64,000 nucleotides of DNA from Amphiscolops sp. MND2022 (Eukaryota). The first letter of the stretch is position 1. Each line of letters opens with the position of its first letter. Positions 19,382-46,012 of the stretch are shown piece after piece. Where the stretch lies: assembly GCA_964187785.1 (NCBI GenBank), contig OZ076409.1, positions 59,894,001 to 59,958,000 on the forward strand, given 5' to 3'. The notes beneath the pieces are model-generated. The model was not told where the DNA came from and did no database searches. It saw nothing but the letters and a program-made list of their open reading frames with translations. The position numbers and the translations under genes are program-made.

Positions 19382-19399
19382 GTCGCTTACTACAGGGAT

Positions 19400-21736: not shown

Positions 21737-22085
21737 TCATTTTCCCGACGCAATCCAACCCCCCCAATCAAATCCCCGCAGGCACACCTTCCTTGTAAAT
21801 TCCCTACCGATACAAAAGTCACTTGCATTTTAGAAAAAAAAATTGCACACGAATGAAAGGATTTAACAAGCTGTATAGATAATCATTTTAGTATTTGTAA
21901 CCAAATCAATTGATATGGTTACAAATACTAAAATGATTATCTATAAGGCTGATTAAATCCTTTCATTCGTGTGCAAATATTTTTTTCTAAAATGCAAGTG
22001 ACTTTCGTATCAGGAGGGAAATTACAAGGAAGGTGTGCCTACGGGGATTTGATTGGGGGGGGGTTGGATTGCGTCGGGAAAATGA
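21737..22085. repeat. Near-perfect ~350-bp palindrome without a loop
   Basis: Centre ATCAA|TTGAT at 21909/21910. Arms TCATTTTCCCGACGCAATCC... and ...GGATTGCGTCGGGAAAATGA are reverse complements with a few mismatches. Confidence 0.92.
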
Positions 22086-22088
22086 AGG

Positions 22089-23214
22089 CATGAAGAATGA
22101 GATTGACAACAATTCTAGGGGACCAGCTTGTTTTATAGATCTTCAGAAAGCGTTTGATACACTTGATCATGACATCTTACTGACATCTTACTGAAAAAAA
22201 AGTGTGAATATGGTTTCAGAGGTGAAGAAAATAACCTTTTGAGGAGCTATCAAGTGTTCAATATATCAATATATCAGGTGAAACTACAAGCTGTCAAAAC
22301 AATGAAACTGGCGTACAACAAGGCACAATTCTAGAGCGATCATTGCTTCAACTTCAGCACTTTCTGCAGACGACACCAGTATTTTGAAAATAAGGCAGAA
22401 GAACGATGCGGGGACTAAACAAGATGAAAACGAGTTAATCAAATAATACACAGCGGATAAACTCTCTGTCAATCTGGATAAATGTGAAATCTTGCCTTTC
22501 GGTTGATTATGTAGTGATCAGGTTGACAAATTTCATGGTCTCATCTGTAGAATTAGATATCTTCACGACAAAAATGCCTTTCAATGTACTACAACTAATC
22601 TGCAAAACTGTTATCAGTTATGATTTACTAATTTACAGCGAAACTGCTAAAAGCAATTGAGAAAAAATAGAAATGGCTAAGCGACGTAACCTTACAGCAG
22701 TTTTTATCAAACGAAAGTACGATTCTGTAGTGAATAGTTTGCAGCAAAATCGAATTCCTTCAGTTTTGATCTCTATTTAGTTTAAGCCATCACTGAAATG
22801 TTCAAACAGTTCCAAATGAAACCCCAACAATTTTTTTACTCCCAACTTGAACCTATGAAACTACTGTTAATAGGATCATAACCACAACGTTTCAGATGAA
22901 CTATTCGTTACCACTTGCTAGAGGCCGTACGTTAGATAAAAGAAAAGGCCTTCAAAATATACTTTGCAAAAGTTACATTTGGATACATCGTTGACAAATA
23001 TCAACTTTTCATTTCTTTTCTAAGTGACTCCGTGTTCTATGTTTTGATGTCTCAAAAAAGTGTGCCTTTTACTTGATTCTCCCGGATTAAAGCTCAAAGA
23101 GCTACTAAGCTCCTTTCTCTTCCTTATTGGATCTTTTTATATAAAATGATTCATTTTTTGATATGTTTTGCTTTCAATACCCAATGAAATTAAAATTTCA
23201 ACTTTCAACTTTCA
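22089..23214 (+). mobile_element. Duplicated 3' part of the LINE remnant
   Basis: Copy of 18260-19381, including CFIDLQKAFDT and the TTTCAAC tail. Confidence 0.85.
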
Positions 23215-26200: not shown

Positions 26201-26476
26201 TTTTTATTCCTTGTAGCGAAAGATCTAGAAAGATTCATTTCCTTTCATAGGTTCATAAGTGTAATTTGTTTGATGGATCGACAATGAGTTTTCGATTTTA
26301 AAGACTTTGCGACTACAGTGATCTTTCAAACTCATTAAGCAAAAATATAGCATTTGCTAATTCCAGTGCATGTTTTCATTTCGAAAATTTGAGTGTGTTG
26401 TCTTTATTGTGAATACGACGGAAACTCCCGAAAATCTTACATATTTTATTATCTCGAAAATTCAACGAAGTATTAT

Positions 26477-27182
26477 TGTAACGTCCACCAGTCAGCACCA
26501 AATTTTCGATGAAAAATTCGATCAAGGACCAGAAAGTGTGCGAATCAAAATGGCCGTCCTGGCAGGTCGTTGAAATCAAAAAGGAAGCACAAAAAAGAAG
26601 AAGACCCCCCACCCCGACCCAGAAAAGAAGAAAAGACACTGACACGATGTGGAAGAACAAGAAAAATGCTCGGATTTGTGTCATCTCCCCAGAAAAGTGC
26701 GTTTTCAATACAAAAATGTTCTGAGATCCAGATATCCCACAGCGAAGAAGATGAAGAGAATCGCGAATTCAATAGAAACATACCAGAGGTGCCAATCTTG
26801 ATTAATTCTGATGTCATTAGTATTGATTTGCAGATTTATGATGATGTCGGATCTGCCAGATCCTTGTAATGGAGTATTTAGACGTTATTTTCTGAAATAG
26901 AATGCATTTCAGCTAGAACCCTGTTTTCGGACCTCGGGAGTATGTAGGACCGCAGGAAGTCTTTAGGAACGTTTTTACATGCTTGTCCGGACTTTGAGTG
27001 CGCCGGCACGTCGCCACGGAGCTCTAATAAGAGGAGTCTCCACGGTGTTTTGGAAAAGTCCCTAGGAGACCTTTAGGGATGAAAAACTGGTATTTAGGCT
27101 TGTTATAGGACTATGGTCTCCTGTCTAAGCAACCTAAGTATTGTCCCAGTTCTGGTATGTGCGTTACTTGCTTGACGTTACA
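26477..27182 (+). repeat. 5' LTR of element B (706 bp)
   Basis: Perfect 9-bp terminal inverted repeat TGTAACGTC...GACGTTACA; about 3 substitutions versus 44711-45416 by eye. Confidence 0.97.
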
Positions 27183-27198
27183 TCTAGAGTAGTTTTTA

Positions 27199-27216
27199 TG
27201 GCGCCCCACAAGGGAC
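27199..27216 (+). promoter_or_regulatory. Primer-binding site, tRNA-Lys(UUU)-like
   Basis: TGGCGCCCCACAAGGGAC versus the Lys3 PBS TGGCGCCCGAACAGGGAC (3 differences); 16 nt downstream of the LTR. Confidence 0.7.
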
Positions 27217-30200
27217 ATTTTTCCATCTTTTCGCCATAATTGGAGTTTTTCCTGCTTTCCGGCCCTGCTAGGTCTGGATCTAGGAAAACTTGTTGGAGAG
27301 TTCTAGATTGTTTTTATTGCCTTATTCTAGCCCTGTGGGCCTTGTACTAGTGTTTTTCCTGCGTGTCCTGCGTATTTCCGAGGTCTGAAACCGAAAATCG
27401 ACGATTTCAGACAGTGTACCCCTTGTATTTTGATAACACCTGTTGAAAATGTTAATCCGGCCTATCCGGAACTGGTTTTAAAGGGTTTTGTAGCTCCGTT
27501 TCAGTAAATTAGCAATGTATGGGGACTGGGAGGACGAGTGCTGAAGGCCCCAATTAGCTGACGACAGTGTGTGAGCACCTCCGACATCACACCTCCAGTA
27601 CCCCTGTAGTTGCCGTATACCCACGTCAATCGGGTTATATTGCTAATTCTTGCTAATAATCGGCCCAAAAAGCATATTCCCAGGCCTGTTCCCACTAAAA
27701 TTAACTGCGGAAAATACCCTGTGGGTGTTTAGACCAGTTGATAAAAATTTTGAGCGCGAAAACCTTGAAAACAACACCATATATAGCTCAAATACCGATT
27801 TTTGAGGTGTTGAAAGTTGAAATCTAATGGAAAAGGATACGGCCAGTGGGAATACAAAAAAAAACGTTCCATCAGACCTGCTAGGTCAGGAACAGAAAAG
27901 TTTGCTGGGCTAAATTGTTGAAACATTGAGAAAATTAGCGATTTTTATAGAGAAAACATCAATTTTGGCCTAAAAGACCAAAATTGGTGAGGGCAAAGCC
28001 TTGGGCACCACCCCAAGCTCTAAGATTAGCCCAAAACGTTGTTGCCGAGCTTGGTAGTACAAAACACTACTGCCAAGACAATTTTTAGCATTCCCCAATA
28101 TAAATTGACACTTTAACTTCTGATTTTCTTTGATATACATAGACCTGAGTAGAGGACCCCATAGACCTGAGAGTAATAACATCAAAAGTAATAATTGAAA
28201 TAACCCCACTCCTCTAAATAAAGTTGTCACACTTTCTTACTGTACTGTTAGAACCATCCCGAACATCTGGGAACCGAGAAATAAAAAGTTCCTAGGGAAA
28301 ATACGTATTTTTCACATTGTTCCCAGAGTGTCAAAGGTGCAACTTGATAGTTATTTTGGAAGACCTTATATGGAACCTGCCAGGTTTCGCACGCCTATTT
28401 TCCGTTAGTATAGGGCATAACGTTGCAAACGCAGAAAACCGCGAGTAATTCCAACCAGTAGTTGCTGAGAAATAGCCGAAAACGCGTTGTTTTTGCGACA
28501 TTTTCGGAACACTGGAGTAGTGTCCCCAAGATAGGTCGAAATCTCTCCTAGTAGGAGTAGCTCAAAACGGATTGAACCATCGTGTCGACCGTAAAAAGTT
28601 ACGTCAGTGGTGTAATTTTCGTAGCGCTACCATTACTAGTGATCGAGAAATCTTAGCCGCAGTTTTGCTCAAAAATTGTACGAAACTGTCAAAAAAATCG
28701 AATTTTAGTTGAGCATAGTGCAATACCTTTGGAGTATCCCAGCACTGAAATTCTTGCAGTTTCGTACACACAGCACTAGGTCCCGACGATTTGTGCATTT
28801 TGAGCAGCTTGCTACTGTCCAAATTGGAGAAATTGACATTTTTGTGAATTTTTGCCCCAGGAAGTGACAAATAGGGTACATCATAGTTTTGTCAACTCGG
28901 ATTGCGGAATATTGACCTGGGCACCCCGCTATTTTGTTTTTCTGTTACGTGGGCATAATTTACGCTCGCATACAAAATTTCAGCTGGCTAGGAAGCCTAG
29001 AAGGCGAGTTTGACAAACTTTTGAAAATTTCACAACATAGTCGATTCTTCAAACAACATTCTGAAGCGACCCCAAGTCTTATATAATCAATTTTGGCGCA
29101 ATCGGCGGTGATTTTCCCACGATTTGGTTACAGTAGTATACCGTGTTAATTTTTCAGGTCGCTAGTTGCTCTAGAAGTGATATTCACCTTCCCCAGGCGT
29201 GCACTTTGGCGAAAGAATTGCCGATTTTGAGAAATTTTGCGAAAAATTATACACTTTTCGTAGGTGTAGTTGCAAGTGAAAGTTTAAGCGACCCTAATTC
29301 TACACCAGGCATCATAGCACGTCCCATTGAAGTAATCGGAATAGAGCTAGCTCAACCCTAAAACCTTGGGTTTGTCAAAAAGCTGTCTACGAGACATAGG
29401 AGTGCAAAACACAAAAACTGTATTTTCTCTCCCAACGACCACCAGGGTCACCTAAGTGCAAACTGATAGGTGTATTCAGGTTTGCCTCGACTAAGGAGTG
29501 ACGCGAGAGAGCTAGAACGCAATTAGGAGTTCTCTAGGAGACGTGGATAGTGGACGCGGTGCGTCTCGAGACAGAAAATTGAGTATAGTAGCATTCGAAA
29601 TTGTAAAGAACTTTGTTTCCATTGATCGTGCTACGATCAGATTACGATAACTCTCTTGTTTGAAAGTGTCCTAACACCTACTCACCCCCAAGGTCTAGTT
29701 CCCAACACCCCTTGTTGTAGCAACACCACAGGTGCTCTCCTATTGAAAGTCAGTACGAGTGACATAGTGTACGCTCCCAGAAGAAAAGCGCGGTGATTTC
29801 TTGAATAAATCTCTGCAAAGTTCTGATAGCGCGCCAAAACCTTTAGTTATCCCAACCACATAGCCTGTGGCTGGATAAAGCGTAGTTTAGTGTGAATAAC
29901 TGTAAAAAAAACTTAAAAAGCTTAACTTTAAATTTGCGTAGAATAACTATCTCCAGTTAGTGGGGAAACAAACCTTTCTGTTCTGATTAGTGGTGACTAA
30001 CACCAGTGCATGTAATCTTGAGTTAGTGCATGTAATTAGGAGTGTGAAGTTTATGACAGTCAGCTGATCTCGAAATAGAATCAAGAGGGCGATCACGAGC
30101 TACAAACTCCAGAACTTAATAGTACGACAGTTTAGTTAGAATATCTGAGAAAGGGATATCAAAACTTCCATTTTGAGTTGCCTTTAATTTAGTTTGTTGA

Positions 30201-30269
30201 AGAGAAGGAGTGAGTGAAAGACGAAAGAAAATCTAACTTAGTTGAGCTGCAAAAACTGTGCAAGTAAAA

Positions 30270-32910
30270 ATGAGTTTGAGTGAGTGGGAATACTTGTTAT
30301 TCGTGAGTGAGACATCATTGTAGTCTAGTGAATTCCATGCTACCAACCCGTTCGCGAACAACATAGAAGAGTTGCATACCCTGAGTACACAAGCTGAAAT
30401 AGCACCGCTGGATATGATCGCCGACCTGTTTTTAGACGACGTAATGTCAGATAACGTGTCTAACATTGAGCAAAATTCGCAAATTGCGCATACAAGCCAA
30501 GCAAATTCCTCAAAGATGTCCTTTGATAGCACCGAACTTGCTAATGAGACTCCCATGAACCATTCCAACGTATGGCCTCCTCTGAACACTTCCGTGATTG
30601 TTACCGGGGACTGGCCGAACTCGAATAGAGAAGTAGCTACTAGCTCCGATATCAGTAAGTGGGTTGAGAATATGAATGTGGGCATGACTTTGGGAGAAAT
30701 CACCCCTCACTTACTTGGGCACAAGTGCGGACCCGCTGGGTTCCGGAATACCAGTGTTTGATAGTAGTAGAAATACACTGGGTGACACAACGATAGCTCC
30801 TTCGGAAAGTCAGCCGGGAAAGCGGAAGACCAGAAAAGGAGTGACTCTCCAGAACTATGCCTCCACTACACCACCATTGCTGGGTCCCAGCACCTTACGA
30901 CTGGAACGCACGGTAGCGCCCCAACACTCCGATGCCGGCAGTGCAGCATCCCCAAATTCGACGATCGCCAGAGGTATCAAAGAAACTGAAGCCATACGAG
31001 AAGATTTTGGACGTAGTATGGAACAATTGAAACGAGTCCAAGTAAAGTTAGCCCAGGAAAACACTGACCATGTCCGTCGGGCAGAAGTTTTGGTGATGGA
31101 AGTAGAAGAGTTACGAAAGGAGGTGAGTGAGATCAAGATGGAAGGACGAGTCAACCAGGGCAAGATAGAAACCTCCGTGGCATCAGTCAAGGACCTGACG
31201 GAAAAACGTATATCGGAGATGACGGCAATAATGGTGCAAAGAGATCGGCAAGCGGAAGAGCGCCTAAAACACATGTCCGAAATGATGCACCACAGAGATT
31301 TAGATGTCGACAAACGCATGGTGGACCTCATGACTACGGTCCAGGATTTAACCCTAGGGGTGAAGACCGTAGTGATGACGACACCAAACCGTCCCTCACC
31401 CGTGCCGGTGGCACCAAACCCTGCAGACATACCATCTACGAGTGCGTTTCCTAGTAAGCACCCCTCCTATCGAGAAGTTGCCAAATGCCAATGTGTGACG
31501 AAACCGGATCAGAAAAAACAGCCAAAGTTACAACCACCCGCAGCGTACAAGCAGGTGCCGATGAAAACCCAATTGTCAACAACCACTCAAACTGAAGTAC
31601 ACCGCTGTGACATATCAGGCCCTCATTCATTTGACCCATATGCTAGAGGTGCCTCAACGACTGGAGATTATTACTCAGCGGCCAGTGACCTAATGCATAG
31701 TAACATGAAAACAGCATCAGGAAGTACCGAATATCAAACTGCTGTTTCGTCAATGCTTGGCACAAAACGCTCAATGTTACCCCATAGTAACGACCAATTA
31801 CGGCCATTGGCCTCTAGCACGCAAAGGAAGACAATCTCGAGAAGGAACCTGAACACTGGAACGGTGGAAGGAGCTGCCAAGGACAAGGTCAATGCTCCGA
31901 ACCCTATACACAGCCAAGCGTTGGCGGAAGCAATAACCACCGCGATGTCCAAAGGTCTGGAGCCATTATTAGCAGCCAAAGAATCCAAGAACAAACCTAC
32001 CAAGTATCGTGGCACACGCGATGGAATAGTGGATGGCTTGCTAATGCTGATGAGGCGTTACCTGGAAAAAGCCCATGCAAAAGACACTCCTTTAGACAGA
32101 GCATGGACCATTGTGGAGTTCCTAGAAAATGAAGCACGGGACTATATTACGAATAAATCAGAAGCGGAACGCGATACTGATGAAAAAGTCTTCGCGCTGC
32201 TAGCACGAAGCTTTGGAACAGGATCTAATAAGATCCAAATACAACAACAGTTCCGTACACGTAATCAGTCCCCGGATGAAGACTACATGCAATACCTTGA
32301 CGCATTGGAAGGTTTGCGCAGCCAAGGTTTTCCCAACGAGGAAGTTGCGTTGAGGCGCTATGAAATTATGCAGAAGTTCATCGAAGGGGTACGAAGTTAT
32401 GAGTTGAAACGAAACCTTGCACTCATGTATGCACAGGAACAGTATGTGGACACACCCCCCAACTGTGGAGGCCTTACGATTCACGGTACAACAATACCTG
32501 CGTATGCGTGGTTCGACACGTTCGGAAAATTATTCTGCACCACAACAACAACAACAGCCGCCTATCGCAGCGAACCCGCAAAACCAAGCACAGGCACAAG
32601 CCCCTCAAGCGCCCAACGCCCAGCAACTCCCACAACAGCCTCCAGCTTTCCGACAACAACAGCAGCGAACATGTTTCAACTGTCGAGATCCTTCACACTT
32701 TGCAGCTGATTGTCCTTTGAAAGACCGAGCACGGAAACCAGTACAGCAAATAGTTAGGTCGTGTCGCACGAACACAGCTGGAGAATGGGTGTGCCCATCG
32801 AACCCACGCGGCATGAATGATGACTTAATGCCTGCAACCCTACCAGAACAAGGAACATCAGCATTTTGTGTTAATTGTGGTCATGTAGGTCACGTGGCAT
32901 CTGATTGTAT
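30270..32910 (+). pseudogene. gag: Gag region of element B (long N-terminus, coiled coil, capsid-like domain, two CCHC knuckles)
   Basis: Joins ORFs 30372, 30715 and 32417. Capsid-like KPTKYRG...QFRTRNQSPDEDYMQYLDALEGL. Knuckles CFNCRDPSHFAADC (32672-32713) and CVNCGHVGHVASDC (32867-32908). In-frame TAG at 30321, frameshifts near 30710 and at the C-run near 32460. Start codon inferred. Confidence 0.88.
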
Positions 32911-35900
32911 GACGCCTCACAATGTTGCAACGGAAGAACAAGTAAAAGCGGCGTGGTACGCCCCGGTCGCAAACTCAACAGACTTTTGCGATTCAGAGGA
33001 TCAAATAAGGGTGATCTCGACTTCAGAAGACGGAGGCCCATCACGCCCTGTGGTTGTAACTTGTGGTGAGAAACAAATCTTGACGACACTTGAGGCACCA
33101 GCGCCTGACTGTACTGAAACACTAATATCCATCCATCTGTTGTTATCCGCGGAACAAAAGGCGCGTCCAAATCTCACATTAGCACAATTGAAAGAAGAAC
33201 TGTGCCGCAATACCAGTTTGACGATAGCTTCGCGACCACTACCCCACTTTACCTGGAATGATGAGACCAAGCTGGCCCAGATACAGAGAGTGAAGACAAT
33301 CGCACCAGTCCCCGTAGCGATCACAGTTGACGGAGTGGACATGAGGTTTGATTCGATTGTTGTCCTGGAAGGACACTTTCCGCTAGGCCTATATCTGGGC
33401 AGGCAAGAACTGCGTTGTTATAGCATTGGAGTGCAAGATGCACAAGGAGAGGCCCAGATTGATGAGCGAGCCTCGCTAGTAGTAGCCATCGGAACTCCTC
33501 TGCAAAAGCCGATACCACTTTTCGGCATGATTGACACCTGTTCGGGAGTTTCCATCCTTTCATTGAGTGCGTACAAGAAGATTGCTTCCCAGCACACGCT
33601 GAGCCTATCACCATATGACGTTGAACTCTTCGCTGCCAATGGCAAAAGCATCACCACCGTGGGTATAGCCGAAGATGTAAACTTTCAGCTCGGCGGATAC
33701 ACTCTGAAGACCAACTTTGTAGTCATAGCCGATCAAAATGGGTCAGAGGATTTCCTCCTGGGTCGCAATTTCTTGCGCACATACAACGTGTTCGTGGACC
33801 TGACAGCAATGAAAGTGACTATCCGTGATCCCAAATAACCTCGAATCTTCAAAGCCACTCATGAGGTAAGCGACCACGAACCATCGTTTGTAGTTTCCAC
33901 TGAAGACGTAATACTAGGTCCATTCGAAAGGAAGATTGTGCGCGCGAAAATCATCACGCAACAACCTGACATTTTCCTGTTTCGTAATGTAACGGTCCAG
34001 TCATGTAGCATAAAGTCCAGTTCAGTCTTTGTTTCAGAAGATACACTGACTTCTGTGGGAGAAGGAGGTATAGTATTTTTAGCCATCCGAAACCAAACTG
34101 ATAAAGAACGGGTGAAAATCAAAGCACAAACTGTTATTGGCAAAGCGGCGCTTACCACTTTTGTATTGAACTCTGTTCTTATGCAAACTGAAGGTGAAGC
34201 TTCGAAGCTTTCTGCCGAATATGTAAATCAAGTACATAGAAACTTTGATATGGACACCAGTTCAGAATTCAGTTCCTTTGCCCAAAACTTTTTATCTTCG
34301 ACCGAACCGTCTGAGGCAGATTTATCAGATAATGAAAAGCGCAAAAGGACAGATCCACAGCTGCTAAAAGCAATCCCAGGCCCTGACCTCTCTTCCGTCC
34401 TTTCTTCATGGGGGGGAAAAGGCGAGAAACAAGTTAGAAACTATATTAAATGAGTATGAAGACCTATTCATGAAAAATAAGTCTGACATAGGTAGGTGTA
34501 AGATTGCAAAGCACAAGATAGAGCTAGAGCCGGAGGCTATACCACACCGAGAAGGAGCTAGGCGAATGTCCCCTGATAAGGCGGCGAAAGCCAATCAGGA
34601 AGTGCAAAATTTGCTGGCCCTTGGTCTGATACAACCCTCCTACTCTCCGTGGGCCAGTGGCATAGTCATGGTGAAAAAGAAATCAGGCGAGCTTCGCTTT
34701 TGCTGTGACTTCCGCCCGCTAAATGATGTAACAGTGAAGGACGCATTTCCACTACCCAGAATCGATGAAAGCCTCTCGAGGATTGGGAATGCAAAGATCT
34801 TCACGAGCATCGATTTGGCGTGGGCCTTTTGGCTAATTCCACTGAAGAAGCGTGTTCGCAGAAAAACGGCGTTCGCGTGTGAACTTGGCCTGTTTGAATG
34901 GCGGCGCATGCCCTTCGGGCTATGCAATGCATCGGCCACTTTTCAGTGATCGATCACGAGAGCTCTACAGAAGATCCAACAACGACATGGAAGCGTTAGC
35001 ATGGCATACATAGATGACATAGTGATTGCGACAGAAACCATTGAAGACCACTTGGAAAGAATCAGAGAAGTGTTCGAGTGTCTCAGAGAGGCAGGTTTCA
35101 AGATGCGAGCAGAGAAATGTGACTTCATGCGCACTGAAACCAAGTACCTCGGAAGAGTAGTTTCGGCCAAAGGCATAAAGCCTGACCCGGCTGCTGTTAG
35201 CAAAATCCAAGAATGGATGCCCCCGAGAAACAGAGAAGAATTACAGAGCTTCCTTGGATTTGCGAACTACTACCGAGATTTCATTCCTTTTCATGCTGCT
35301 AAGGTGCAACCTTTGCAGGAGTTGTTAAGGAAGAACCAACACTTCTACTGGAAAGAAAGACACCAAGAAGCGTTCGATGCAGTAAAGCAGGCATTGGTCG
35401 ATGCCACAGCTTTGGCAGCGCCTAACGAAGAGGGACGTTTCGTTCTAGACACGGATGCCAGTGCAGTTGCTATAGCCGACATACTGCACCAAGAGCAACA
35501 ATACAATGGGAAAACCATTCTTCGTCCTATTGTTTACGGCAGCAAGTCACTGACTAAAACACAAAGGAATTAAGGCGCCCCGAAGCTGGAAATGTATGCA
35601 GTATTCTATTTCATCGAGAAATTTCATTCCTACCTTGCAGGTCGGGAATTCACGCTGCGTGTGGACAACCAGGCTCTCTCATGGCTGAAGACATATTCAA
35701 TGGATCAAGCCATGATTGGACGCTGGATTGCGCGCCTCGACCAATATCATTTCAACACGATTCACAGACCGCGCACACAACATAGAAATGTGGATGGTCT
35801 TAGCAAAAGGACCAATGACTACGTACATCGGGAGAAGATCGTGGAAACTCTACCAGAAGTGAGCAAGGGAGTCAGCTTCATGCCCCAGAAAGACTACGAA

Positions 35901-38765
35901 GAACTCCCCACTGTGCCCTATATCGACAAACATGGAAAATTTATTCCAAACCATCCAGAGCTTCCACCAGAAGCTCGAGCACAACTTCCAGTGCTGTACA
36001 TTTTGAAAAAGCCACCAAAAGAAGACCTAACCTCAGACCCGTCCTTGAGTTCCATACCATGGTACCCACAGGTGCAATGGGAAACAACTCCGACTTCGAC
36101 CGAATTGTATCCTTAGCGTAACAACCAAAGTGCCGGCGGCACGTCTGGACACCACCCAACGTGACCCAGCAGTGCGTAGGTTGCCAACGCAGTGTCAGGA
36201 ACAAGCTGACGTCCTCAGGCTAGTCGGGACCGAGCTTCACGAGCATCAGTCAACAATGCGCGGATTGAAAGATCTTCATCTAGCTCAAAACAGAGATGTA
36301 CATCTGCTAGCGTTGAAGAAACTCATGAAGAACGAGCCATTAGAGGATACGTTGTTCCCCGAAGACATGCAGGACTTTGCCAAACGGTACTTTCACCAGA
36401 AGAAAGACTTACTGTTCCTGAACCAGAATGATATCTTGTGTGTCAACTACATTCCGCAGCAACGCGCGATGCACATACGACCGTGTATGATCGTCATGCC
36501 CCAGCTATACCAACACGAAATCTTGTACAGAGGGCACGACGAGTCAGGACACCAAGGCGTTGGTAAAGTGTTGGCAAGAATCCAGGAGTCCAGGAGCGCC
36601 ACACTTGGCCAGGCATCAAGCGTGATGTTGTCAATCATATTATGCACTGCTTAACATGCCAACAGACGAAGCATCCCGCTGGGAATCCCTGTTATCCGTT
36701 ACAAAGTATCAACAGCAGCAACTTTAATGACCTGGTGCAGTTCGACCATTTGAAGTTGTGCAAAACAACGTCAGGAAATAATGGATTGCTAGTCGTCATC
36801 GACCATTTCACTAAATTTGCAGAGGCAATCCCATGTGCACACGACGAATATGACGCCCAGACGACTGCAAAGATTATCCTGAACAAATGGTTTGCAAGAC
36901 ACGGCACTCCTGCCAGGATGCAATCAGACAATGCCACCAACTTTACTGCTGAGATTGCTCAAGAACTGATGAAAGCTTCGCAAGTAACCAAAATAACGTC
37001 TACTCCAGCTCATCCGAGAGGCAATGGTTCAGTGGAACGTCAAAACCGAACATTACTGACCTTGCTCCGAGTCTATACGTCTCGAAGAATGCTTGACTGG
37101 GATGAACACATAGACGGAGTCTTGGGTGCTTATAATTCAACCAGACATGCAACGACAGGATTTTCCCCGTATATGCTCCAACATGGCGCAGAAAAATCCA
37201 TTCTACTCTCGTTTATATACACAGAATTCGCAGCGCAAGAGTTTGAGTCCAAAGAAGAATTTGTGGAGCACCTACTTGCTCGACAACAAGAAATCCACGA
37301 ACTTGTTCGCCGAAACACACACCAGGCGCAAATACGACAAAAACAGAAGTTCGACAAGCATTTGAAAGCAAAAGCTCACGCGGTGGGTGATGCTGTTTGG
37401 GTTTTCTGCCACATAATTCCTAAAGGTGGCACCCGCAAACTCCTTCGTGCCTGGCGTGGACCTCACAAGGTCACAGATGTATTACAAGATGGAAGATTAT
37501 ACGTTTTGGATACAGGACAAAAGGTTTACTTCGAACGCCTGAAGATGCATGTGCCTGCGCCGTGGGATTGGGCGGCACATCAACCCTTTGGGTTAGACCA
37601 GAATGTTGCCATCATTGCAGACCCATACGTGGAAGAAAGTAATGAGGAAATAACGTCAGACATATCACGTGACTCATTTCTTCCAGAACAATTGCCAGAG
37701 GCATCATTCGAGATGGAACCGACCGCGCCCGTTCCCCCAAGCACGATTCAAACACGTACTCAGTCTGCTTTGGAACGGGGAATCCCTCGAAGACGATTCA
37801 GTCATTTTGGATACCCTTCTGAGTCGGAATCCGACCAAGAACAAATGGGTCAACCCATTGAAGAGCCACAACAACCAATGATCTACCCTGATATCGATGA
37901 TTTGGAACCACTGTATTCCGATCAAGAGGAAGTCAGGCCAGAACCAACACCAAGTCTGATACCCTCGCCAACAGGAACATCAGCACCATTGCTCTCAAAC
38001 CCAGCTTTAACCGACACATTGAGCAATTTTCCACTATTCAGTTCTCGAGCTGGTAGCTCGGCAGGACTACAAACTATCGAGGAACCCGAACCCCAAGAAA
38101 GAACTGACAGAGAAATTCCAGAACCCGGACACAGCATGGAAACATCGCCATCATCGGGGAGAACCGCGAGTAGAAGAGGCAGGCCAAGAGGCAGACCTCC
38201 AAATCGTAGAAGAGGAAGTGCCAACTCATCAAGCAGAGCACTTGCAAGCACGCACCGACCGTACACCAGATCGAGAGGCAGATTGCGAACCAGAACACAA
38301 TCTCAAACCTTGGAACGTGCAATGTCACTACCCAACATCGCAGAAAGCTTATCATCAGAGCAACCAGAAGCGGAACAAACAACAACCTCACGAGCACCAC
38401 CCTATTTGCTGCGACGCAATAGAACTCCTAGATATCGCTGCGGAACATGTGGTTCCCGTAACTGTAGTTGCCTCAACCTAATTAGTGGAAAACCACCAGA
38501 CAAGCGATTGGCCCGGGGAGTAGACGCTCTTGCCCCAGACACAGCTGTTACTGAAACAACGGAAGACCACATGCAACACATCCGAAGCATACAAGCTAAG
38601 GACCAAGAGGTTCCACAAGTACATCATGTTGTGATTACCGTGGAAAAGACCTATTCGAGCATTGGACCAGCCGTGGTCCCACCCCTGGAAACCACACTAA
38701 AAGCCATGCAAGAAACATCTCCCACTCCCACCATCGATGATGTTTGGAAGAATAGAACCAAGTGA
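32911..38765 (+). pseudogene. pol: Pol of element B: protease, dUTPase-like insert, RT, RNase H, integrase with GPY/F module, long disordered tail
   Basis: PR IDTCSG...LLGRNFL; RT SPWASG, RFCCDFR, MPFGLCNA, YIDD; RH DTDAS, KLE, VDNQAL; IN HHCC (HDESGH...CLTC) and DDE (QFDH, SDNA, VERQN). Stops at 33836, 34947 and 35571; frameshifts at the G-run near 34410, near 36110 and at the 8-bp duplication TCCAGGAG (36581-36596). Confidence 0.95.
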
Positions 38766-39794
38766 CACACGAATAGCAATGGTCCGCTGTATCACCGCGC
38801 GAAGACTATGGCAGCAATATGGTGTAACCTCCCCTCCTGGAGATGGGTATCACCCAACGGCTGGTTGGTGGCTTTTGGTCACCTCTTTGGACGAAACATC
38901 ACTAGTGACTCCAGGAACTTTACTGATTTGCTTGGAAAATTTGCGTACGCTTGTAGAGTTCGAGGACACCTAGTTCGAGAGTTCCATCTAGCAGATATTT
39001 ATCGTGGGAAACTCCTCAGTCAACATTGGTTACAGCTACTAGCTATCATCTTTTGTCGCCAAGCCAAGGTACGCCTGTTAGACAAACACACGTATACATT
39101 CGAGAACCCAGTGACCGTGCTGGAAGCACTCTCCGTAGTTCCCGATTGGTCTTGCACGAACTTGGGAGACAGACCTTTACGCAGAACAGTGTGGCAAGAC
39201 CGTAAGGCCATTTTGGATCATCTCACACCAATTCAAGACAATCAAAGCACAGTCACGGGAAAACTATTGATAACGCATCCGAAGATCAAACCGAACTATC
39301 TATCATGGATCTATTACGAAGAAACTGACATTTTGCAAGCCAGGGGTACCGTAGTAATATGCTGTCCGGGAGATCTTCTGTCACACTCAGCAATGGCGCG
39401 CTACGTCATCAGGGAATATGGCCAGGAAGAAATTTTCCGACTACGCCCAGCCGTAGGAAAGGCTATTCACCTCACCAGATCACCCGCAACGCCGTTGAAT
39501 AACGAAATGTTCCTGTTAATCACCAGAGCCTCTAGTAAACACCCCATTTTACATGATGTGCTACATCTGTGCCTGATAGACCTGGTGCAGAAGCTCACAC
39601 GAGCACAAATCATCCGTATCCATCTTCCCATCTATGACCCTGAAAGATCAATCAACATGCTACCAGCTTGGTATTCAATGTTGAAAGATCATTTCATTGA
39701 TTCCAATATCGACATAGTCCTCCATGATAGGGTGTATGTATCGATTGCGTTAGTGAGGACACACCATAACCATGTAAAATACAAATTTGACTGA
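38737..39794 (+). CDS. Tandem TARG1/Poa1p-like macrodomains (probable C-terminal extension of Pol)
   Basis: 39306-39728 aligns by eye with TARG1/OARD1 along its length: IYYEETDIL, VICCPGDL..SAMA, REYG, GKAIHL, FLLITR, IHLP, HFIDSNIDIVL. A more degenerate copy spans ORFs 38737 and 38808. Confidence 0.7.
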
Positions 39795-39970
39795 ATCACT
39801 GTGGCATTAAAAAAATATGGGAGGCCACTAGTCCTGTTCTCAGCACATGTGTTGTTTGAGTCAATCTCTGAACTAGGTTTTAACGTGAATTGTCGAATCT
39901 GTTTTATCTTATTGTCTTTTAACGTTTATCATATCAATTGCAGTCATCAGCAATAGTATTTTAGTTCAAA

Positions 39971-39998
39971 TTGACGTCTGTTGTTTTCTTTTTTCTAG
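39971..39998 (+). promoter_or_regulatory. Candidate splice acceptor upstream of the accessory ORF
   Basis: TTGAC branch-like motif, then a pyrimidine tract TTGTTTTCTTTTTTC and TAG, about 105 nt before ATG 40104. Confidence 0.4.
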
Positions 39999-40103
39999 TT
40001 CAGTCCTGTCAATTCCCATGCACTTGACGCAGCCAGTCGTATATCATCATATTTGCAGTATATCCACCATAGTCATTTATCCAAGGTGCTACCTATCTCT
40101 TTA

Positions 40104-43100
40104 ATGGATCAATCGGCTAGAACCCGCATGCCAACTCCATCAACAACAAGCTCGCAACCGAGCACCAGCAGAATGGACCAATCACAACCGCCGACGATTG
40201 CCACGCAAGAAACTCCCGTGTCCTCGCTGCCTGTCGAAGAATCTCAAACCAGAATTGACCAGCTTGGTCTGGTCCAATCGACCCTACAAGAGGCCCTTTC
40301 TCCATCACTGGTGACCGGGATTGCCATACTAATTGCTCAAATGCAGTCTCTCGAAATACATCCGGACTTTACCCTCTCCATATCAATTGGAATTGGATCT
40401 TACCGCAGAACTGCGGAATTCCACAATGGTGCGTGGCAAGGTCACGATCTCACCCACCATTTTGATGACCACAGATCGCACCTGAGATATGGCGAGCCTA
40501 ATAGGCCTCCCATGGAGCAGCAACGACCTCTTCAAACGAACCTGATGCAAGCACCTGCAATATCGTCGATAACTGCCCCCGAGAGCGCCCACGACTGTCA
40601 ATCAACGCAACCATCGCCTACACAGCAATTCACATGCCTTTTGCCAACAGTGCCTCCGCCGATATTGACGCTCCACCATCATCCGCCCCAATTAGTGTCA
40701 GGCGCCTGGAAGAGAACAACAAACTCATGCTCCCTTCTTCTTTCAGGGGGGAAGGGGTAGAAGAAGCGCACACGAGCGCGCAGAACGCTGAAGATGCCAC
40801 CCAAGATACAAGCCAAAGACCGAGAACCATAATGATGCGGAACCCGCTCGACGTGCCCATCATGACAGATATGATCGGATTTTAAGACTCTTACGATGCC
40901 TTGCTACCTTCAACGTCGCAGGACCCACATCACCTAATAGGTTTTCAGGCCGACCCAGAACGCCAAGAACAACAGAAAGGCAAGCAGCCAAGGCCCCTAT
41001 CGATCTCCGCGACGTTTTGAATCGAAAGGAACAAAGCAAGATCGAACAGCTAGTCCAAAAGAAAAGGGCCAGAGACTTAGCCAATTCGGATGCAGCGAAC
41101 TCCAGCCCAAATCCCTCCCCAGTGCAACAGCCGGAGCCTAGGCGAGTGCGATTCTCTAATGAGCTCCTATCGCAGACAGAGGCACGACAGCTTGACATTG
41201 CTGCCAGAGACGCGGTGCGTCTGCAGCGAGAAGCGAAATCAGAGAATCCAGACTCAGGATTGGATGTGCAGAAATTCGAAACAGCTACCAGTAAAGGAAA
41301 CCCAGAGGATGTGGAGAACCTCGAAAAAGCAACGATCGGAATGCATTACTTGAGGCCCGTAAAGAAGCCAACACTCCTTCTGGATCGCATTCCTCCCTGG
41401 TTCGAGAGAGTAAGGGAGAATCTTCATAAAGACAAGTCATCATTGGTGAGACCACTCCCCTCCAAAGTAAAATTAGCCGTACAACGACCGGCAAGACACG
41501 ATGACCAACTGATGAGAAGCCGTGATTTCATGAGAGATGTAACAACCTTGCTCCCCATGGGCAAAGAGATGTTGCAAAAGACAAGGATTGCCTTGTTCAT
41601 GGACTCTACGATGAAAGCAACGGCGAACATGAACAACACCCTGATGGAGGACAATTCCATTCCCCCCGATCCTGATATATAGCAATATGATTGACCACTT
41701 GGCTCTTCGAGGAACGCTGAAATACTTTGAAGGAGGCAACTGTAGACTGACGGAAGAAGTAATGACAGGAGAGGTAGTTGCGTACGTCGAAGCAATGAAG
41801 AATGTGATCAGGCGGGTGCAGCGAATGAAGCCCGTCGTAGGGGTAGTCTTTGTGTCGCCCCCGGGATACGTATACTTGCCTAAACCACTCCAGCAACTGT
41901 TGTATCTAGTATCAGAAGCATCCTACTCACAAAATTTGTCATTCTACATAATAGCACCGAACCTGAGAGTGAGTGCCACAACCTGGCGTCCGGGTGAGAA
42001 CTCTTATTCTGCATTCTTGGCGGAAATCTCGAAAGCCTTGCAGGCTTGTACCGGATACGAGGGCAACTCTCAGTTGTTGCCCGATGATGCTACTGCCTTT
42101 GACTTTGGCATGCAAATGGCGCATCGCTCCTTTGATGAGAATGGAGTACGCCGAGTCAAGGAGCCTAATGAAAAGGAACGAGCAAACATGATTGACAACG
42201 GATGGTTTGAAAGGAGAGATGAGTCAACGTTAGATGAGAGGACGCACAACGCTAAATTCCACAAAGAGCTGCTAGCTCTCTTCAAGAAGACAGAAGGAAT
42301 AAAACAAACTCGGACCGACGCGACCGTTTTTCCAGTGGCGATACAAGCGATCGACGCGAAGCCCAACATGGTTTCCCCCACCCTGGTATTGTTAACAGTA
42401 TTAGCTCAGAAGACAGCGCAAGAAAACCAAATGAACCGAGAGCATTCTTACCAATCTTGGCATGAGACGCTGCAGGTGACCTTGAATGAAACAGCAGAAA
42501 GCCATGGAATTCCCTTCCCCATATTCTTGTATAATATCTCGCCATTTTGGGTACCAACGATGGTGCAGCGTGAAAGCAGCTTAGATGAGCAGCAAGTTAG
42601 ACTGTATGTAGAAGCAATGCAGAGGGCCACAATTGCTGAGATCCTGGCCTACCTGATGGCCGTTGGTCTAGGCGCCGTCTACAAGGGCCCAGTGCACCTG
42701 GTGCAAAAATTGGTCCTAGCTAAAGCCAACTCCTGTCTACTCAGTTTTCTCATATTCACCAAGAACCAGTGGAATTGGATTAACGCCATTCTAAACACCT
42801 TGGACCCCGCATGCGCTTTGAACTTGCGCGCCCAACTCGCCGAGAATATCAAAACACTATTGGCTTGGGTTTACTCAGCCTGGGTCAATGTCTCTGGCGT
42901 GATGAGCACTTTAGACGACTCGCTGAGTCAAAGACCCAATAGCAATAACCTGCCAGGTTTCCTATTCCCGTCGCAGATAGCCAGCCTCATGTTGATAGAA
43001 ACTGAAGATCTAGTCCCCATGATCGCACCCATAGTCTGGCCTATATTCGGTTCAATGATGGCCCTGAGATACCCTACACAGCCGCTTAGAGTTGCCGCAA

Positions 43101-44241
43101 AAGCACCTACATTATCTATTCTACATTTCGTGGATCCTGAAGACGACGCCAGACAACCAGATTTTCAAATGCTAGTGCGCAACTTTGCCAACTTCCGACC
43201 ACCAATGGCATACACGATTATTAAAGACAAGAAACAGGTCGAGTACAATTTCAGTGCCCTGATCCGAGCCAGAGCGCGGTGCGCTGTTCCTATGTCGCTA
43301 GAACTTCATCCAGTAGAATGGTTTCACGCTCCTGTAGAACCCAGCACTGGAGAATTGCAAGGCTTTACCAGCTGGGATGAGCCAGGTATTCTCCGAGTAC
43401 TAACCAATGCGGAACGACGCCTGGGTGGACGAAGAAAAGGCTCCACACTAGAAAGACTCCAGCATCGAGTAATACAAGATGTATCCCGAATGTACAACCC
43501 TCGAGTGACACCGCAAGCCGATACAGTCAAAATCCTGTCTGACACTACGCATTGGGCAGACCCGCCGATAGTGGACAGAATGATCCACCAAGGATTTCAA
43601 ACTCTGAAGGCGACAGTTCCGAAAATCGCAAGAGAACCCAATAGAAAGACCTTGCCCCTGAATGAAGAGATGCCGAGCAATCCACAAATGGCCATGGAAA
43701 TCTTCATGAGTCTGATAACCAAGCAGAGGGACGAAGGAAATACCGTATATGACAGTTATTCAAATGCAATTTGGACTTTCAAAGAACTATTTTTCCGATA
43801 TGGAGCCAAGACCTCGCAGACCAGCTGCCAGAACTAAGCCCAGCAGGCTCGACCTCAACGAGACAGGCAGCAGGGCACGAGGAGGTTTCTACTGCCGAAA
43901 ATACATCAACTTCCATGGTGTCAACCTCAAGTATAATCAGCATTGCAATAGCTGCAGCACCAACCAACACCGATGTATCCATCCATAACCCCGAAACAGC
44001 TAACCCAACCACAGTCAACACCACCAATGCTACTCCCAATGATCAGACAGTGCCGCTAGAAGCTTTGGAAGTCACGCCCACGTCGTTGACGAGAACACTA
44101 GCAGCCGATATCGAATTAGAATTGAACGAACTACCTAGCTTGAGTCAGCAAAACCTGCCGTCATCGGAAGTATTGGCCGTATCATTAAATGAAGTGCTGC
44201 AAGATGACGATACTACTATGGATGACACTGGCCATGAATGA
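40104..44241 (+). pseudogene. Accessory ORF in the env position (~1,380 aa reconstructed) with an SGNH/GDSL-like domain and an unknown helical domain
   Basis: Overlapping or abutting ORFs 40053, 40634, 41017, 41687 (716 aa) and 43771 tile the region on the sense strand, with about 4 frameshifts. Motifs RIALFMDS, PDI..., YVEAMKNVIRRVQRMKPVVGVVFVSPP. Confidence 0.75.
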
Positions 44242-44702
44242 AACAAGTACTGTACTCGGCTAATCAAACCAAACTAACCAAAACCGTATTACGCCTCAGC
44301 AGTTATCAAAACAATAAGTGCTATTTTAGTTAACAAAGTATTAAGATTATTTTGCTAGTGTAACTACCCGGTGGGTAGGTCCCAGCTTGGTGCCTGCCTA
44401 ACTGCCAAAACAAGTGCAATTAAAGTTTTAGTAAAAATCTCTCCGCTTCTCTGGCCAAGTGTCGCAAAAGTGCAACCACCCTTAAAAGAACTTTTAAACT
44501 AGCTTGGAACGAATGGTAAGAGTTTTTAAAGAAACTGATTTTTATTGTCCCAGAATGATCAAAAAGTGCTAAAATAAAAAGTGCTAAATCGAAATTTTGA
44601 GGTAGTAAGATCTAAGAGAAAAACTGAAAATCACGTTGCTAAAACCATTTGTAAGTAGTGATGCATCCTTCTCCGTTTGCCGAGGACGACAAACAGTTGC
44701 CC

Positions 44703-44710
44703 GGGGAGGA
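44703..44710 (+). promoter_or_regulatory. Polypurine tract of element B
   Basis: GGGGAGGA abuts the 3' LTR. Confidence 0.8.
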
Positions 44711-45416
44711 TGTAACGTCCACCAGTCAGCACCAAATTTTCGATGAAAAATTCGATCAAGGACCAGAAAGTGTGCGAATCAAAATGGCCGTCCTGGCAGG
44801 TCGTTGAAATCAAAAAGGAAGCACAAAAAAGAAGAAGACCCCCCACCCCGACCCAGAAAAGAAGAAAAGACACTGACACGATGTGGAAGAACAAGAAAAA
44901 TACTCGGATTTGTGTCATCTCCCCAGAAAAGTGCGTTTTCAATACAAAAATGTTCTGAGATCCAGATATCCCACAGCGAAGAAGATGAAGAGAATCGCGA
45001 ATTCAATAGAAACATACCAGAGGTGCCAATCTTGATTAATTCTGATGTCATTAGTATTGATTTGCAGATTTATGATGATGTCGGATCTGCCAGATCCTTG
45101 TAATGGAGTATTTAGACGTTATTTTCTGAAATAGAATGCATTTCAGCTAGAACCCTGTTTTCGGACCTCGGGAGTATGTAGGACCGCAGGAAGTCTTTAG
45201 GAACGTTTTTACATGCTTGTCCGGACTTTGAGTGCGCCGGCACGTCGCCACGGAGCTCTAATAAGAGGAGTCTCCACGGTGTTTTGGAAAAGTCCCTAGG
45301 AGACCTTTAGGGATGAAAAACTGGTATTTAGGCTTGTTATAGGACTATGGTCTCCTGTCTAAACAACCTAAGGATTGTCCCAGTTCTGGTATGTGCGTTA
45401 CTTGCTTGACGTTACA
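44711..45416 (+). repeat. 3' LTR of element B (706 bp)
   Basis: Near-identical to 26477-27182. Confidence 0.97.
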
Positions 45417-46012
45417 TATAGTTCATTCTTACTTTTATGATTTCACTAAGATGACATGGGCTCTTGGTAGGCATAAGCACGCGGTAGGGAAAATTCGAAA
45501 CAATTACATTGCAAAAGGGAGCTGGAAGCGACGAAAATTGAATTTAAAATAGTCATGAGGAAACATGTAGTCAGTTTAGAGATGACAAAACTCCACAATT
45601 TTGAACTACACTTAGGGTACCAAAAAGCAAAAGACTCCTAATACAAATCTCAAATCGCAATAAATCTGTACAAAATCAACAGACACAAAAGTCATTGGAG
45701 CAAAACTTTCTTGCATTTCATACATAACAAATGTCTTCGCTAGGTTTTGACTTCTGGTATCCGAAAGGTATCATTTGTTATCTCGAGACAAAAAGTACCT
45801 TTGACTTGGAGACTCTAGCTTTTAAATTTAACACTTTTTCACCCGTCTCTAAAATTTACACCGCAATACGATCACGAAATACGAAATCTTCAGTTTTCAC
45901 TCCGTAAAAATATTGTTTCGACAAAATTACAAGAGATTTTGGCTTTAAACTTTTGAATAAAGCATTCTCAGAGTATTTGGTAAATATGAAAGTTGAAAAC
46001 TGGTGTCACAGC

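Follow-up and report, generated by a model that had tools for sequence, protein, structure and literature searches.

A predicted tandem pair of TARG1-class macro-fold domains behind the integrase of a decayed Ty3/Gypsy retrotransposon

The window, a stretch of 64,000 nucleotides from contig OZ076409.1 of Amphiscolops sp. MND2022, contains an 18.9-kb Ty3/Gypsy LTR retrotransposon, delimited by LTR matching, Pfam searches, and a frame map, which encloses the two domains considered here, D1 and D2. Its parts are listed below (database relatives are given by their P numbers).

26477..27182, plus strand: 5' LTR (TG...CA), which matches the 3' LTR over 711 bp at 99.4%
30345..33838, plus strand: broken gag with CCHC knuckles plus aspartyl protease (Pfam zf-CCHC, E 1.5e-8; gag-asp_proteas, E 1.1e-4)
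34422..36104, plus strand: reverse transcriptase and RNase H (Pfam RVT_1 and RT_RNaseH)
36097..37560, 3' end approximate, plus strand: integrase with zinc finger, core, and C-terminal part (Integrase_H2C2, E 9e-4; rve, E 7.7e-8)
37561..38609, bounds approximate, plus strand: low-complexity spacer, acidic in one part and basic in another, with a short cluster of cysteines, defined by charge counts and lower conservation
38610..38720, plus strand: what remains of segment U, a small fold that precedes D1 (matches P0002 residues 1560-1596)
38722..38970, plus strand: N-terminal two thirds of the D1 macro-fold domain, in the frame of ORF 38737 (96% identity to P0002 over 83 aa)
38971..38981, plus strand: frameshifting lesion within D1, placed by a diagonal shift
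38982..39107, plus strand: C-terminal third of the D1 macro-fold domain, in the frame of ORF 38808 (collinear with P0002 residues 1711-1752)
39108..39284, plus strand: segment L, a folded strand and two helices followed by a hinge that leads to D2 (AlphaFold secondary structure)
39285..39752, plus strand: D2, a TARG1-like macro-fold domain with a degenerate ligand pocket (profile, Foldseek, and residue counts)
40792..43837, plus strand: second broken ORF region between the LTRs (ORFs of 296 and 730 codons)
44711..45416, plus strand: 3' LTR, a direct repeat of the 5' LTR (TG...CA)

The Ty3/Gypsy domain order (gag-CCHC, protease, reverse transcriptase, RNase H, integrase) is present by Pfam, and the flanks of the element have 3 bases in common, compared with the target-site duplication of 4-6 bp typical of Ty3/Gypsy. 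The gag-protease region is collinear with residues 20-1374 of P0185 and carries two frameshifts and one stop; mapping against P0002 and P0185 places in-frame stops at 34947 and 35571 within the reverse transcriptase-RNase H region, and the frame map places frameshifts near 36100 and 36580 in the integrase region. The stretch of P0010 that matches the spacer is modeled with a pLDDT under 50. Segment U is folded in the models of relatives, with its second half deleted in the window copy (about 29 codons gone relative to P0002), while segment L is 46-97% identical across 9 relatives. No Pfam match above the cutoff was found for the downstream ORF region 40792..43837, and Rfam gave no match over window positions 26000-46000.

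The sequence-only reading had postulated a second macro-fold domain upstream of the visible one, concealed by a frame split between ORFs 38737 and 38808; the peptides that it quoted are present in the window, and both the frame use of the relatives and a fold model bear the proposal out. The frame of ORF 38737 is matched by all 24 long relatives, with local scores of 199-366 (68 of 71 residues are identical in P0002), whereas the competing stretch of the 38808 frame scores only 23-35 in the same relatives, which is the level of the third frame. In a set of 174 proteins, the 38737 frame is matched by 51 and the 38808 frame by three, these three being 49-58% identical and two of them visibly switching frame themselves; 58 further cluster members add 38 matches to the former and none to the latter. 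The long relatives do not read the 38808 frame throughout. Their Pol is a single frame comprising the integrase, a long spacer, D1, a linker, and D2; U-D1-L-D2 lies within one ORF in 31/58 cluster members, and P0185 (3178 aa) is one ORF spanning Gag to D2. In the window, D1 extends from about 38722 to about 39107. The position given for the junction, near 38948, was wrong: homology follows the 38737 frame up to 38970 and the other frame from 38982, which puts the break at 38971-38981, about 25-35 nt further 3', and makes the ACRVRGHLVRE stretch of the earlier peptide off-frame filler. That reading had also passed over another break, at about 38721, the context of a decayed LTR element, and the catalytically dead look of both domains.

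The fold of both domains was assessed on AlphaFold models of relatives: P0010 for D2, which is 84-87% identical to the window, and P0154 for D1, which is 46% identical to the window over the N-terminal part of D1. The P0010 model of D2 aligns with TARG1 (2LGR) at Z 16.0 (rmsd 4.0, 143 aligned) and with 4J5S in Foldseek at E 3.2e-9 (TM 0.83); the P0154 model of D1 aligns with 2LGR at Z 11.5 (rmsd 3.2, 118 aligned), with 2AFC at Z 11.7, with DarG at Z 11.3, and with 4J5Q in Foldseek at E 2.4e-6 (TM 0.62), so that the upstream segment does have a macro fold in the model. At the level of sequence profiles, TARG1 is the sole significant PDB match of D2 (E 2.9e-5), and a D1-centered profile reaches TARG1 only via its D2 columns (E 0.04). 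Taken as predicted structures, both domains belong to the TARG1/DarG/Poa1p class of macrodomains, with an alpha/beta/alpha fold across the whole domain. Pfam misses the pair wholly: Macro (PF01661) matches neither of the two window ORFs and none of the 67 alignment members, and even the divergent P0114 reaches merely E 0.3. In the ESM Atlas, D1 was placed in a Macro cluster at 0.82, below the lead threshold of 0.9, and was not counted; a search with U-D1-L returned nothing named. A possible resemblance of the U and L flanks to an HUH/Y1 transposase fold drew no support from these structure and ESM Atlas searches, in which macro-domain matches filled the lists and left little room for the flanks.

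Judged by their profiles, D1 and D2 are homologous to each other. HHalign aligns the two at 91.9% (E 6.9e-7, 111 columns), while the other nine region pairs reach 0.45% or less; none of 150 column shuffles and none of 150 block shuffles reaches the observed score, and the D2 HMM also matches the D1 of P0002 (E 3.8e-4). The two domains are only 20% identical, and the parallel that had been drawn between the joined peptide and the downstream domain is clear with profiles and only modest from the two peptides of the window: with an X at the break, their local score is reached by 25/2000 shuffles and their global score by 13/3000, as against 449/2000 and 1578/3000 when the 38808 frame is read throughout. 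Both carry a D-x-x-R loop 2 where the canonical loop reads G-x-G-x-D.

The residues of the ligand pocket were counted over 53 D2 and 38 D1 sequences, those of D1 being mapped to TARG1 via D2 with a loop 2 that can be read in two registers. At the site of the TARG1 catalytic lysine, K84, D2 has Arg in 50/53 sequences and Lys in one; the G43 site holds Ala in 44/53 and Gly in one (of the 49 sequences not gapped at this site, 48 lack Gly), the G121 site Asp in 51/53, and the G123 site Glu in 42/53 and Gly in 6/53. At the site of D125, the second residue of the TARG1 dyad, Asp occurs in 0/53; the Asp and Arg of the D-x-x-R loop 2 are present in 51/53 and 48/53. In D1, the K84 site is Ser or Ala in 35/38 and never Lys, loop 1 is nine columns shorter, loop 2 has an aromatic residue in 38/38, and the D125 site is Gly or Phe in most sequences, depending on the register. 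The site of TARG1 D20, the adenine-contacting Asp after strand 1, is not conserved in D1, and Asp is retained there in 42/53 D2 sequences (8 gaps); together with the Arg that almost always fills the catalytic position and might mark a rewired site, this Asp counts against a pseudo-enzyme reading. In TARG1 itself, neither ADP-ribose binding nor activity survives the mutation G123E or G43E (PMC5928194), and K84A abolishes the rescue of DarT toxicity (PMC8501950). Lacking the TARG1 catalytic lysine and glycine loops, both D1 and D2 look catalytically dead.

As measured by protein identity, both domains nevertheless remain conserved: in the five most distant relatives tested, D1 is 66-68% and D2 58-69% identical, against 40-43% for the basic spacer. 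The family is a successful one, with clusters of 41, 178, 56, and 45 members, and its keeping two copies under apparent constraint despite the lost TARG1 active site points to a nonenzymatic use. A scan of metagenome contigs yielded 61 hits to the pattern, none of them confirmed as a relative; of 4105 candidates for a long relative of P0132, none qualified, which is weak evidence; and the 50 matches listed from BFVD, many of them without names, include macro-containing viral proteins and no named retroelement.

We propose, as the probable though by no means secure reading, that the domain pair of this Ty3/Gypsy family, of which the window holds a dead copy, is a duplicated, noncatalytic binding module at the integrase end of the polyprotein. 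The family might have captured a TARG1-like ADP-ribosylhydrolase, whose canonical pocket would then have been lost as the D-x-x-R loop 2 replaced G-x-G-x-D; the pocket-less domain would subsequently have been duplicated, with D1 losing loop 1 as well. The pair would enter the particle together with Pol, and would most likely serve either as a tether linking the integrase with some host protein or feature of chromatin, or as a shield of the element against host ADP-ribosylation that acts through binding and not through hydrolysis. With 12 basic and 12 acidic residues in D1 and 17 and 16 in D2, the domains are charge neutral, which does not favor strong nucleic-acid binding.

A credible but rather unlikely alternative is that D2 still binds or hydrolyzes ADP-ribose through a rewired site, with Lys replaced by Arg and a D-P-E-R loop, and acts against host ADP-ribosylation of the proteins, RNA, or cDNA of the element, with D1 as an inactive accessory. 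The Asp at the D20 site, the Arg at the K84 site, and the Asp and Arg of loop 2 are found in most D2 sequences, the full fold is kept, and a divergent group of relatives (P0132, P0114, P0123, and P0174) has retained the Gly at the G123 site; host ADP-ribosylation, moreover, acts on retrotransposons, as a passage of PMC4695847 describes for SIRT6 and KAP1 on L1. However, the prevailing Glu at G123 and the loss of Gly at G43 are equivalent to changes that kill TARG1 binding and activity, and the D125 site is without Asp.

That TARG1-like domains were captured twice independently, once as D1 and once as D2, with no internal duplication, strikes us as improbable. The low mutual identity of the two would fit this, as would a midpoint-rooted tree in which the canonical domain of P0175, another gypsy Pol, falls among the D2 rows with D1 as a separate clade (96/96). 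Yet the shared D-x-x-R loop 2 is present in neither TARG1 nor P0175, and D1 matches D2 but not the P0175 domain (0.5%, with a single-sequence template); moreover, rooting on P0175 makes D1 the sister of the D2s of the tandem-bearing elements, with a support of only 86/85 and long branches.

The frame split of D1 is ordinary decay of one dead copy and not recoding; it accounts for two of the ten lesions (7 frameshifts and 3 stops) that separate the window from P0185 and is in itself biologically nothing new. The larger break, at about 38721, severs D1 from Pol, which is cut off by a stop at 38763, and the lesion at 38971-38981, with 8-nt and 7-nt matches to 38955-38964, is built from short duplicates of the sequence lying 15-25 nt upstream. 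Between the two LTRs, just 3 of the 706 positions within the TG...CA span are different, which suggests an insertion young for so many lesions and could mean that the breaks are errors of sequencing or assembly and the copy is recent and otherwise intact; this is very unlikely, as 4 of the 7 shifts measure 5 to 86 nt, unlike single-base run errors, one is built from nearby sequence, three lesions are in-frame stops, and many database relatives are likewise truncated copies. A programmed -1 frameshift, with translation starting at the ATG at 38737 and yielding a joined D1-D2 protein, was rejected as wholly improbable, for although an in-phase A-AAT-TTG heptamer lies at 38937, beside the junction first proposed, and two neighboring lesions happen to add up to whole codons, the heptamer ends in G and is thus noncanonical (one of 19 such in 9.5 kb), the downstream RNA is no more stable than shuffles (214/300 as stable), relatives are uninterrupted at the site, the actual break lies about 30 nt away and resembles a templated insertion, Pol is severed by the stop at 38763, and the copy carries eight further lesions.

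Viral macrodomains are usually interpreted as erasers of antiviral ADP-ribose marks, and the nonenzymatic use favored here would be located at the end of Pol that bears the integrase, a place in which targeting domains occur in other gypsy elements. The D1-D2 tail would support ADP-ribose pathways as a part of host-transposon conflict, and its relatives would offer a natural series for how pseudo-enzymes arise. A bolder version, possible but on balance doubtful, is that this abundant giant gypsy family converted an ADP-ribose eraser that it had captured into a pseudo-enzyme reader, present in duplicate. The reader would expose a new D-x-x-R surface and be wrapped together with the U/L fold, and it might target integration or block an ADP-ribosylation defense of the host without catalysis. 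It would correspond, in a retrotransposon, to the SUD of coronaviruses and be a new kind of integrase-targeting module, with a graded series leading from P0175 (intact enzyme) through the P0132 group (half-degenerate single domain) to the tandem pair.

Among known systems, TARG1/OARD1/C6orf130 (4J5S, 4J5Q, and 2LGR), of the DarG/Poa1p class, is the best structural match of both domains, with which it shares the strand-helix order. It differs in that D1 and D2 are 14-18% identical to it, do not keep its catalytic Lys, loop 1 glycines, or G-x-G-x-D, occur as two copies fused to a retrotransposon polyprotein, and lie below Pfam Macro detection. A functional analogy is suggested by SUD-N and SUD-M of coronavirus nsp3 (6YXJ and 8UFM), which are not known to bind ADP-ribose; D1 matches 6YXJ, whose structure is a complex with Paip1 of the host, at Z 7.9. 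These are tandem macro folds that serve as binding modules in a viral polyprotein, as outlined in part of PMC7729036, but they belong to another macro subclass and another virus and match more weakly than TARG1, and no common origin is claimed. The planarian giant gypsy Burro/GYPSM1 is also very long, with one huge polyprotein and captured regulatory domains, but its extras are MATH, BIR, ankyrin, BCL2, SUMO-like, dUTPase, and Env, and the account of it never mentions "macro" (PMC6431247). Teleost epsilon-like endogenous retroviruses are LTR retroelements with captured macro-domain ORFs (Basta et al. 2009, as cited in PMC4977317); they differ in being Retroviridae with macrodomains as additional ORFs, and the relevant passage of PMC4977317 mentions no tandem or inactive copies. 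Retroelement macrodomains are known; our literature searches turned up no tandem pseudo-macrodomain tail. Finally, P0175 (JGI), our positive control, is a Ty3/Gypsy Pol that likewise has an in-frame TARG1-class domain, one that D2 matches at 95.9%, but it carries a single macrodomain, which lies between RNase H and the integrase instead of following the latter, is detected by Pfam Macro (E 2.6e-5), and has its lysine and G-x-G-x-D intact.

The Pol 3' end of the element encodes two consecutive domains, D1 (38722-39107) and D2 (39285-39752), in the order U-D1-L-D2, where U (38610-38720, a remnant here) and L (39108-39284) flank D1. D1 and D2 are homologous. The sequence-only reading had already drawn a parallel between the upstream stretch and the downstream domain, and profile comparison bears this out: profiles built from natural sequences (38 of D1 and 53 of D2) align over 111 columns with 91.9% probability, an E value of 6.9e-7 and 20% identity (87.4% probability in the reverse comparison). 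Every other pairing of U, D1, L, D2, and the integrase core (nine in all) stays at or below 0.45%, and a reversed D2 control gives 0.8%. The D1-D2 score of 43.6 was reached by none of 150 column shuffles (maximum 18.4) and none of 150 block shuffles (maximum 26.6), and the D1 of P0002, a related database protein, is also detected by the D2 HMM (E 3.8e-4).

Neither domain is detected by Pfam in the window ORFs or in 67 relatives. A profile of these relatives has a sole match among PDB sequences, human TARG1, spanning all of D2 (E 2.9e-5). In the AlphaFold model of another relative, P0010, most 10-residue blocks of D1 and D2 have a pLDDT of 82-98 (one D1 block, 77), and its D2 matches TARG1 in Foldseek (E 3.2e-9, TM 0.83) and in structure comparison (Z 16.0, rmsd 4.0, 143 aligned). 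D1 was tested apart from D2 by folding P0154, a D2-less relative 46% identical to the window over 78 D1 residues. Residues 214-336 of that model give Z-scores of 11.7 (2AFC), 11.5 (TARG1), 11.3 (DarG), and 10.4 (Poa1p) over 115-118 residues, and all eight Foldseek matches to its D1 at E values up to 0.001 are to TARG1 (best, 2.4e-6). An Atlas feature match of D1 to a Macro cluster scored 0.82, short of the lead threshold, and was left out of account. Hence, both domains are predicted to be macro folds; the P0154 model supports a second macrodomain, hidden by a frame split upstream of the visible one, and speaks against a split segment devoid of that fold. U and L (P0010 residues 160-225 and 345-395) are modelled as folded at moderate confidence (pLDDT by block of about 50-92, lower in a second model), and together they may form one discontinuous domain into which D1 is inserted. 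Some structural alignments take a U strand as an extra strand of the macro sheet.

The peptides originally quoted are present in the window sequence. When the 38737 frame is joined to the 38808 frame with an X at the break, 25 of 2000 shuffles reach its local score against D2 and 13 of 3000 its global score; on the window alone, this joined reading aligns to D2 somewhat better than chance, whereas the 38808 frame throughout does not exceed chance (449 of 2000 local, 1578 of 3000 global). The frame use of relatives settles the coding frame as that of 38737. A search with D2 recovered 24 longer proteins (56-94% identical). Each of them contains the peptide of the 38737 frame (scores 199-366), and the competing 38808-frame stretch is present in none (scores 23-35, like the third frame), contrary to the alternative that intact copies use the 38808 frame throughout. 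In a 174-protein set, comprising these 24 and 150 cluster representatives retrieved with the 38808-frame protein, the 38737 frame has a match in 51 and the 38808 frame in 3 (P0158, P0136, and P0054; 49-58% identical), of which P0158 and P0054 themselves visibly switch frame. For another 58 members listed from the clusters, the respective counts are 38 and 0; U-D1-L-D2 lies in one ORF in 31 and is partial in 9, and the four profiles have no match in the remaining 18.

Against P0002, homology runs in the 38737 frame over 38722-38970 and resumes in the 38808 frame from 38982, which moves the junction from the neighborhood of 38948, as initially placed, to 38971-38981; the same comparison exposes the ACRVRGHLVRE stretch of the initially joined peptide as off-frame filler. 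The lesion is built from short copies of sequence at 38955-38964, and we infer that it arose as a templated insertion. A second break, at about 38721, deletes about 29 codons directly upstream of D1, and the frame shift that it causes ends Pol at 38763. In the relative P0185, Gag through D2 lies within one ORF of 3178 aa. Compared with it, the copy in the window carries 7 frameshifts plus 3 stops in frame, and two of these ten lesions make up the D1 split. Recoding by frameshifting was rejected: the slippery-like heptamer at 38937, though in phase, is noncanonical, 19 such heptamers occur within 9.5 kb, and no downstream structure follows it (214 of 300 shuffles are equally stable). The split itself is only an artefact of decay, and the feature behind it is the tandem tail of the family.

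The host is a eukaryote, most likely an animal. The window background is AT-rich (~35% GC), and a block of 46-50% GC at 30-44 kb is flanked on either side by direct repeats (26477 and 44711; 711 bp aligned, 99.4% identity). These LTRs start with TG, end with CA at 27182 and 45416, and show 3 differences in 706 bp. Between them, CCHC zinc knuckles, aspartyl protease, RT, RNase H, and integrase follow in Ty3/Gypsy order, and the D1-D2 region forms the 3' end of pol, about 1.1 kb beyond integrase. No clean target-site duplication was found at the element ends (26477-45416). Such near-identical LTRs on so heavily lesioned a gag-pol suggest that the lineage was defective before it was copied in trans, or that the LTRs were homogenized. 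A TGG-starting stretch at 27199-27216 (+), 16 nt past the 5' LTR and thus at above the usual spacing, resembles a tRNA-Lys primer-binding site. A short conserved cysteine cluster (about 38430-38480, +; 61-100% identity across nine relatives) lies between integrase and U, after a basic NLS-like spacer stretch. Upstream of the element, a tandem duplication (18257-25740; period about 3.83 kb, 87-99% identity) has inverted repeats near 21760-22085 at its junction. Further features are as follows.

40792-41682 and 41645-43837, + strand: second long ORF region, broken, inside the LTRs
47440-48330, - strand: other retroelement remnant (RT/RNase H), outside the element
55007-57233, + strand: other retroelement remnant (RT/integrase), outside the element

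The ORF region at 40792-43837 has no Pfam match and no PDB sequence match; its strand-helix pattern may resemble that of an SGNH/GDSL esterase. Rotifer LTR elements are described as carrying GDSL ORF3s (PMC5408684).

The TARG1 pocket positions compared include D20, taken as the residue that contacts adenine, and D125, taken as the second residue of the dyad. Numbering was set by matching the 4J5R chain to G43, I44, and G123 (PMC5928194) and K84 (PMC8501950). Among the 53 D2 sequences, the G43 site is A in 44 and G in 1, the K84 site R in 50 and K in 1, the G121 site D in 51, and the G123 site E in 42 and G in 6, and the D125 site is never D. In TARG1, G123E and G43E are reported to abolish ADP-ribose binding and activity while keeping RNA binding (PMC5928194), and K84A does not rescue DarT toxicity (PMC8501950). 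In D1, mapped to TARG1 via D2, loop 1 is nine columns shorter in the profile alignment, S or A occupies the K84 site in 35 of 38 sequences and K in none, and all 38 carry an aromatic residue in loop 2; neither of the two possible loop 2 registers restores D125. Judged from these residues, both pockets look dead, with D1 further degenerated than D2. Alternatively, the D2 pocket could be changed rather than dead, forming an altered site: D20 is kept (D in 42, gap in 8), along with a near-invariant Arg and a D-x-x-R. D1 and D2 both appear constrained as gauged from protein identity alone: of nine relatives, the five most distant show 66-68% identity to P0002 in D1, 58-69% in D2, and 40-43% in the basic spacer, and the only one of these five that covers the integrase core has 96% there.

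As a control, P0175, another, unrelated gypsy Pol, has one macrodomain (residues 513-655) between RNase H and integrase; it is Pfam-positive and TARG1-like with intact motifs and is canonical and apparently active. Loop 2 reads D-x-x-R in both D1 and D2 and G-x-G-x-D in TARG1 and P0175. A divergent D2-like group (P0132, P0114, P0123, and P0174) has D-x-G-R and keeps Gly at the G123 site; in P0132, its sole member with a long upstream part, no D1 was detected there. D1 forms a single clade (96/96) in a tree built from 23 rows of selected representatives, and with P0175 as root it groups as sister to D2s from elements that have the tandem pair (86/85, long branches flagged). This rooting and the shared D-x-x-R suggest, though they do not prove, that degeneration came first and duplication second.

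Returning to dead pockets, we propose that the module would be made as the tail of Gag-Pol, reach the particle, probably travelling with integrase, and act by binding rather than catalysis. One possibility is that it tethers integrase to a feature of chromatin or to a host protein; other gypsy elements carry chromodomains at this position. Another is that it masks the element from an ADP-ribose-based defence; host ADP-ribosylation is reported to act on retrotransposons in the case of SIRT6 and KAP1 on L1 (PMC4695847). D1 and D2 are both neutral in net charge, which makes a protein a likelier ligand than plain nucleic acid. We hold the family architecture, homology, fold, residue losses, and decay of the window copy with high confidence. 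The whole explanation, a decayed gypsy copy whose tandem pseudo-macrodomain tail is a noncatalytic binding module, seems to us moderately probable, and that this tail is a new noncatalytic targeting or counter-defence module is a tentative and rather doubtful suggestion.

Macrodomains in retroelements are already known; what appears new is that a giant gypsy polyprotein ends in a tandem pair of conserved pseudo-macrodomains. Among the papers listed by the literature search, with Repbase Reports and most subscription journals outside its scope, none dealt with tandem or inactive macrodomains on gypsy Pol, and given that scope, prior annotation may exist; term look-ups in PMC6431247, PMC5408684, PMC5718144, PMC9040795, and PMC13524379 gave no mention of a macrodomain. 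Macro-domain ORFs are reported in fish endogenous retroviruses (Basta et al. 2009, as cited in PMC4977317). The closest working analogy is the SUD of coronavirus nsp3, which is described as having tandem macro folds (PMC7729036) and whose structure in complex with Paip1 (6YXJ) matches the D1 of the P0154 model with a Z-score of 7.9.
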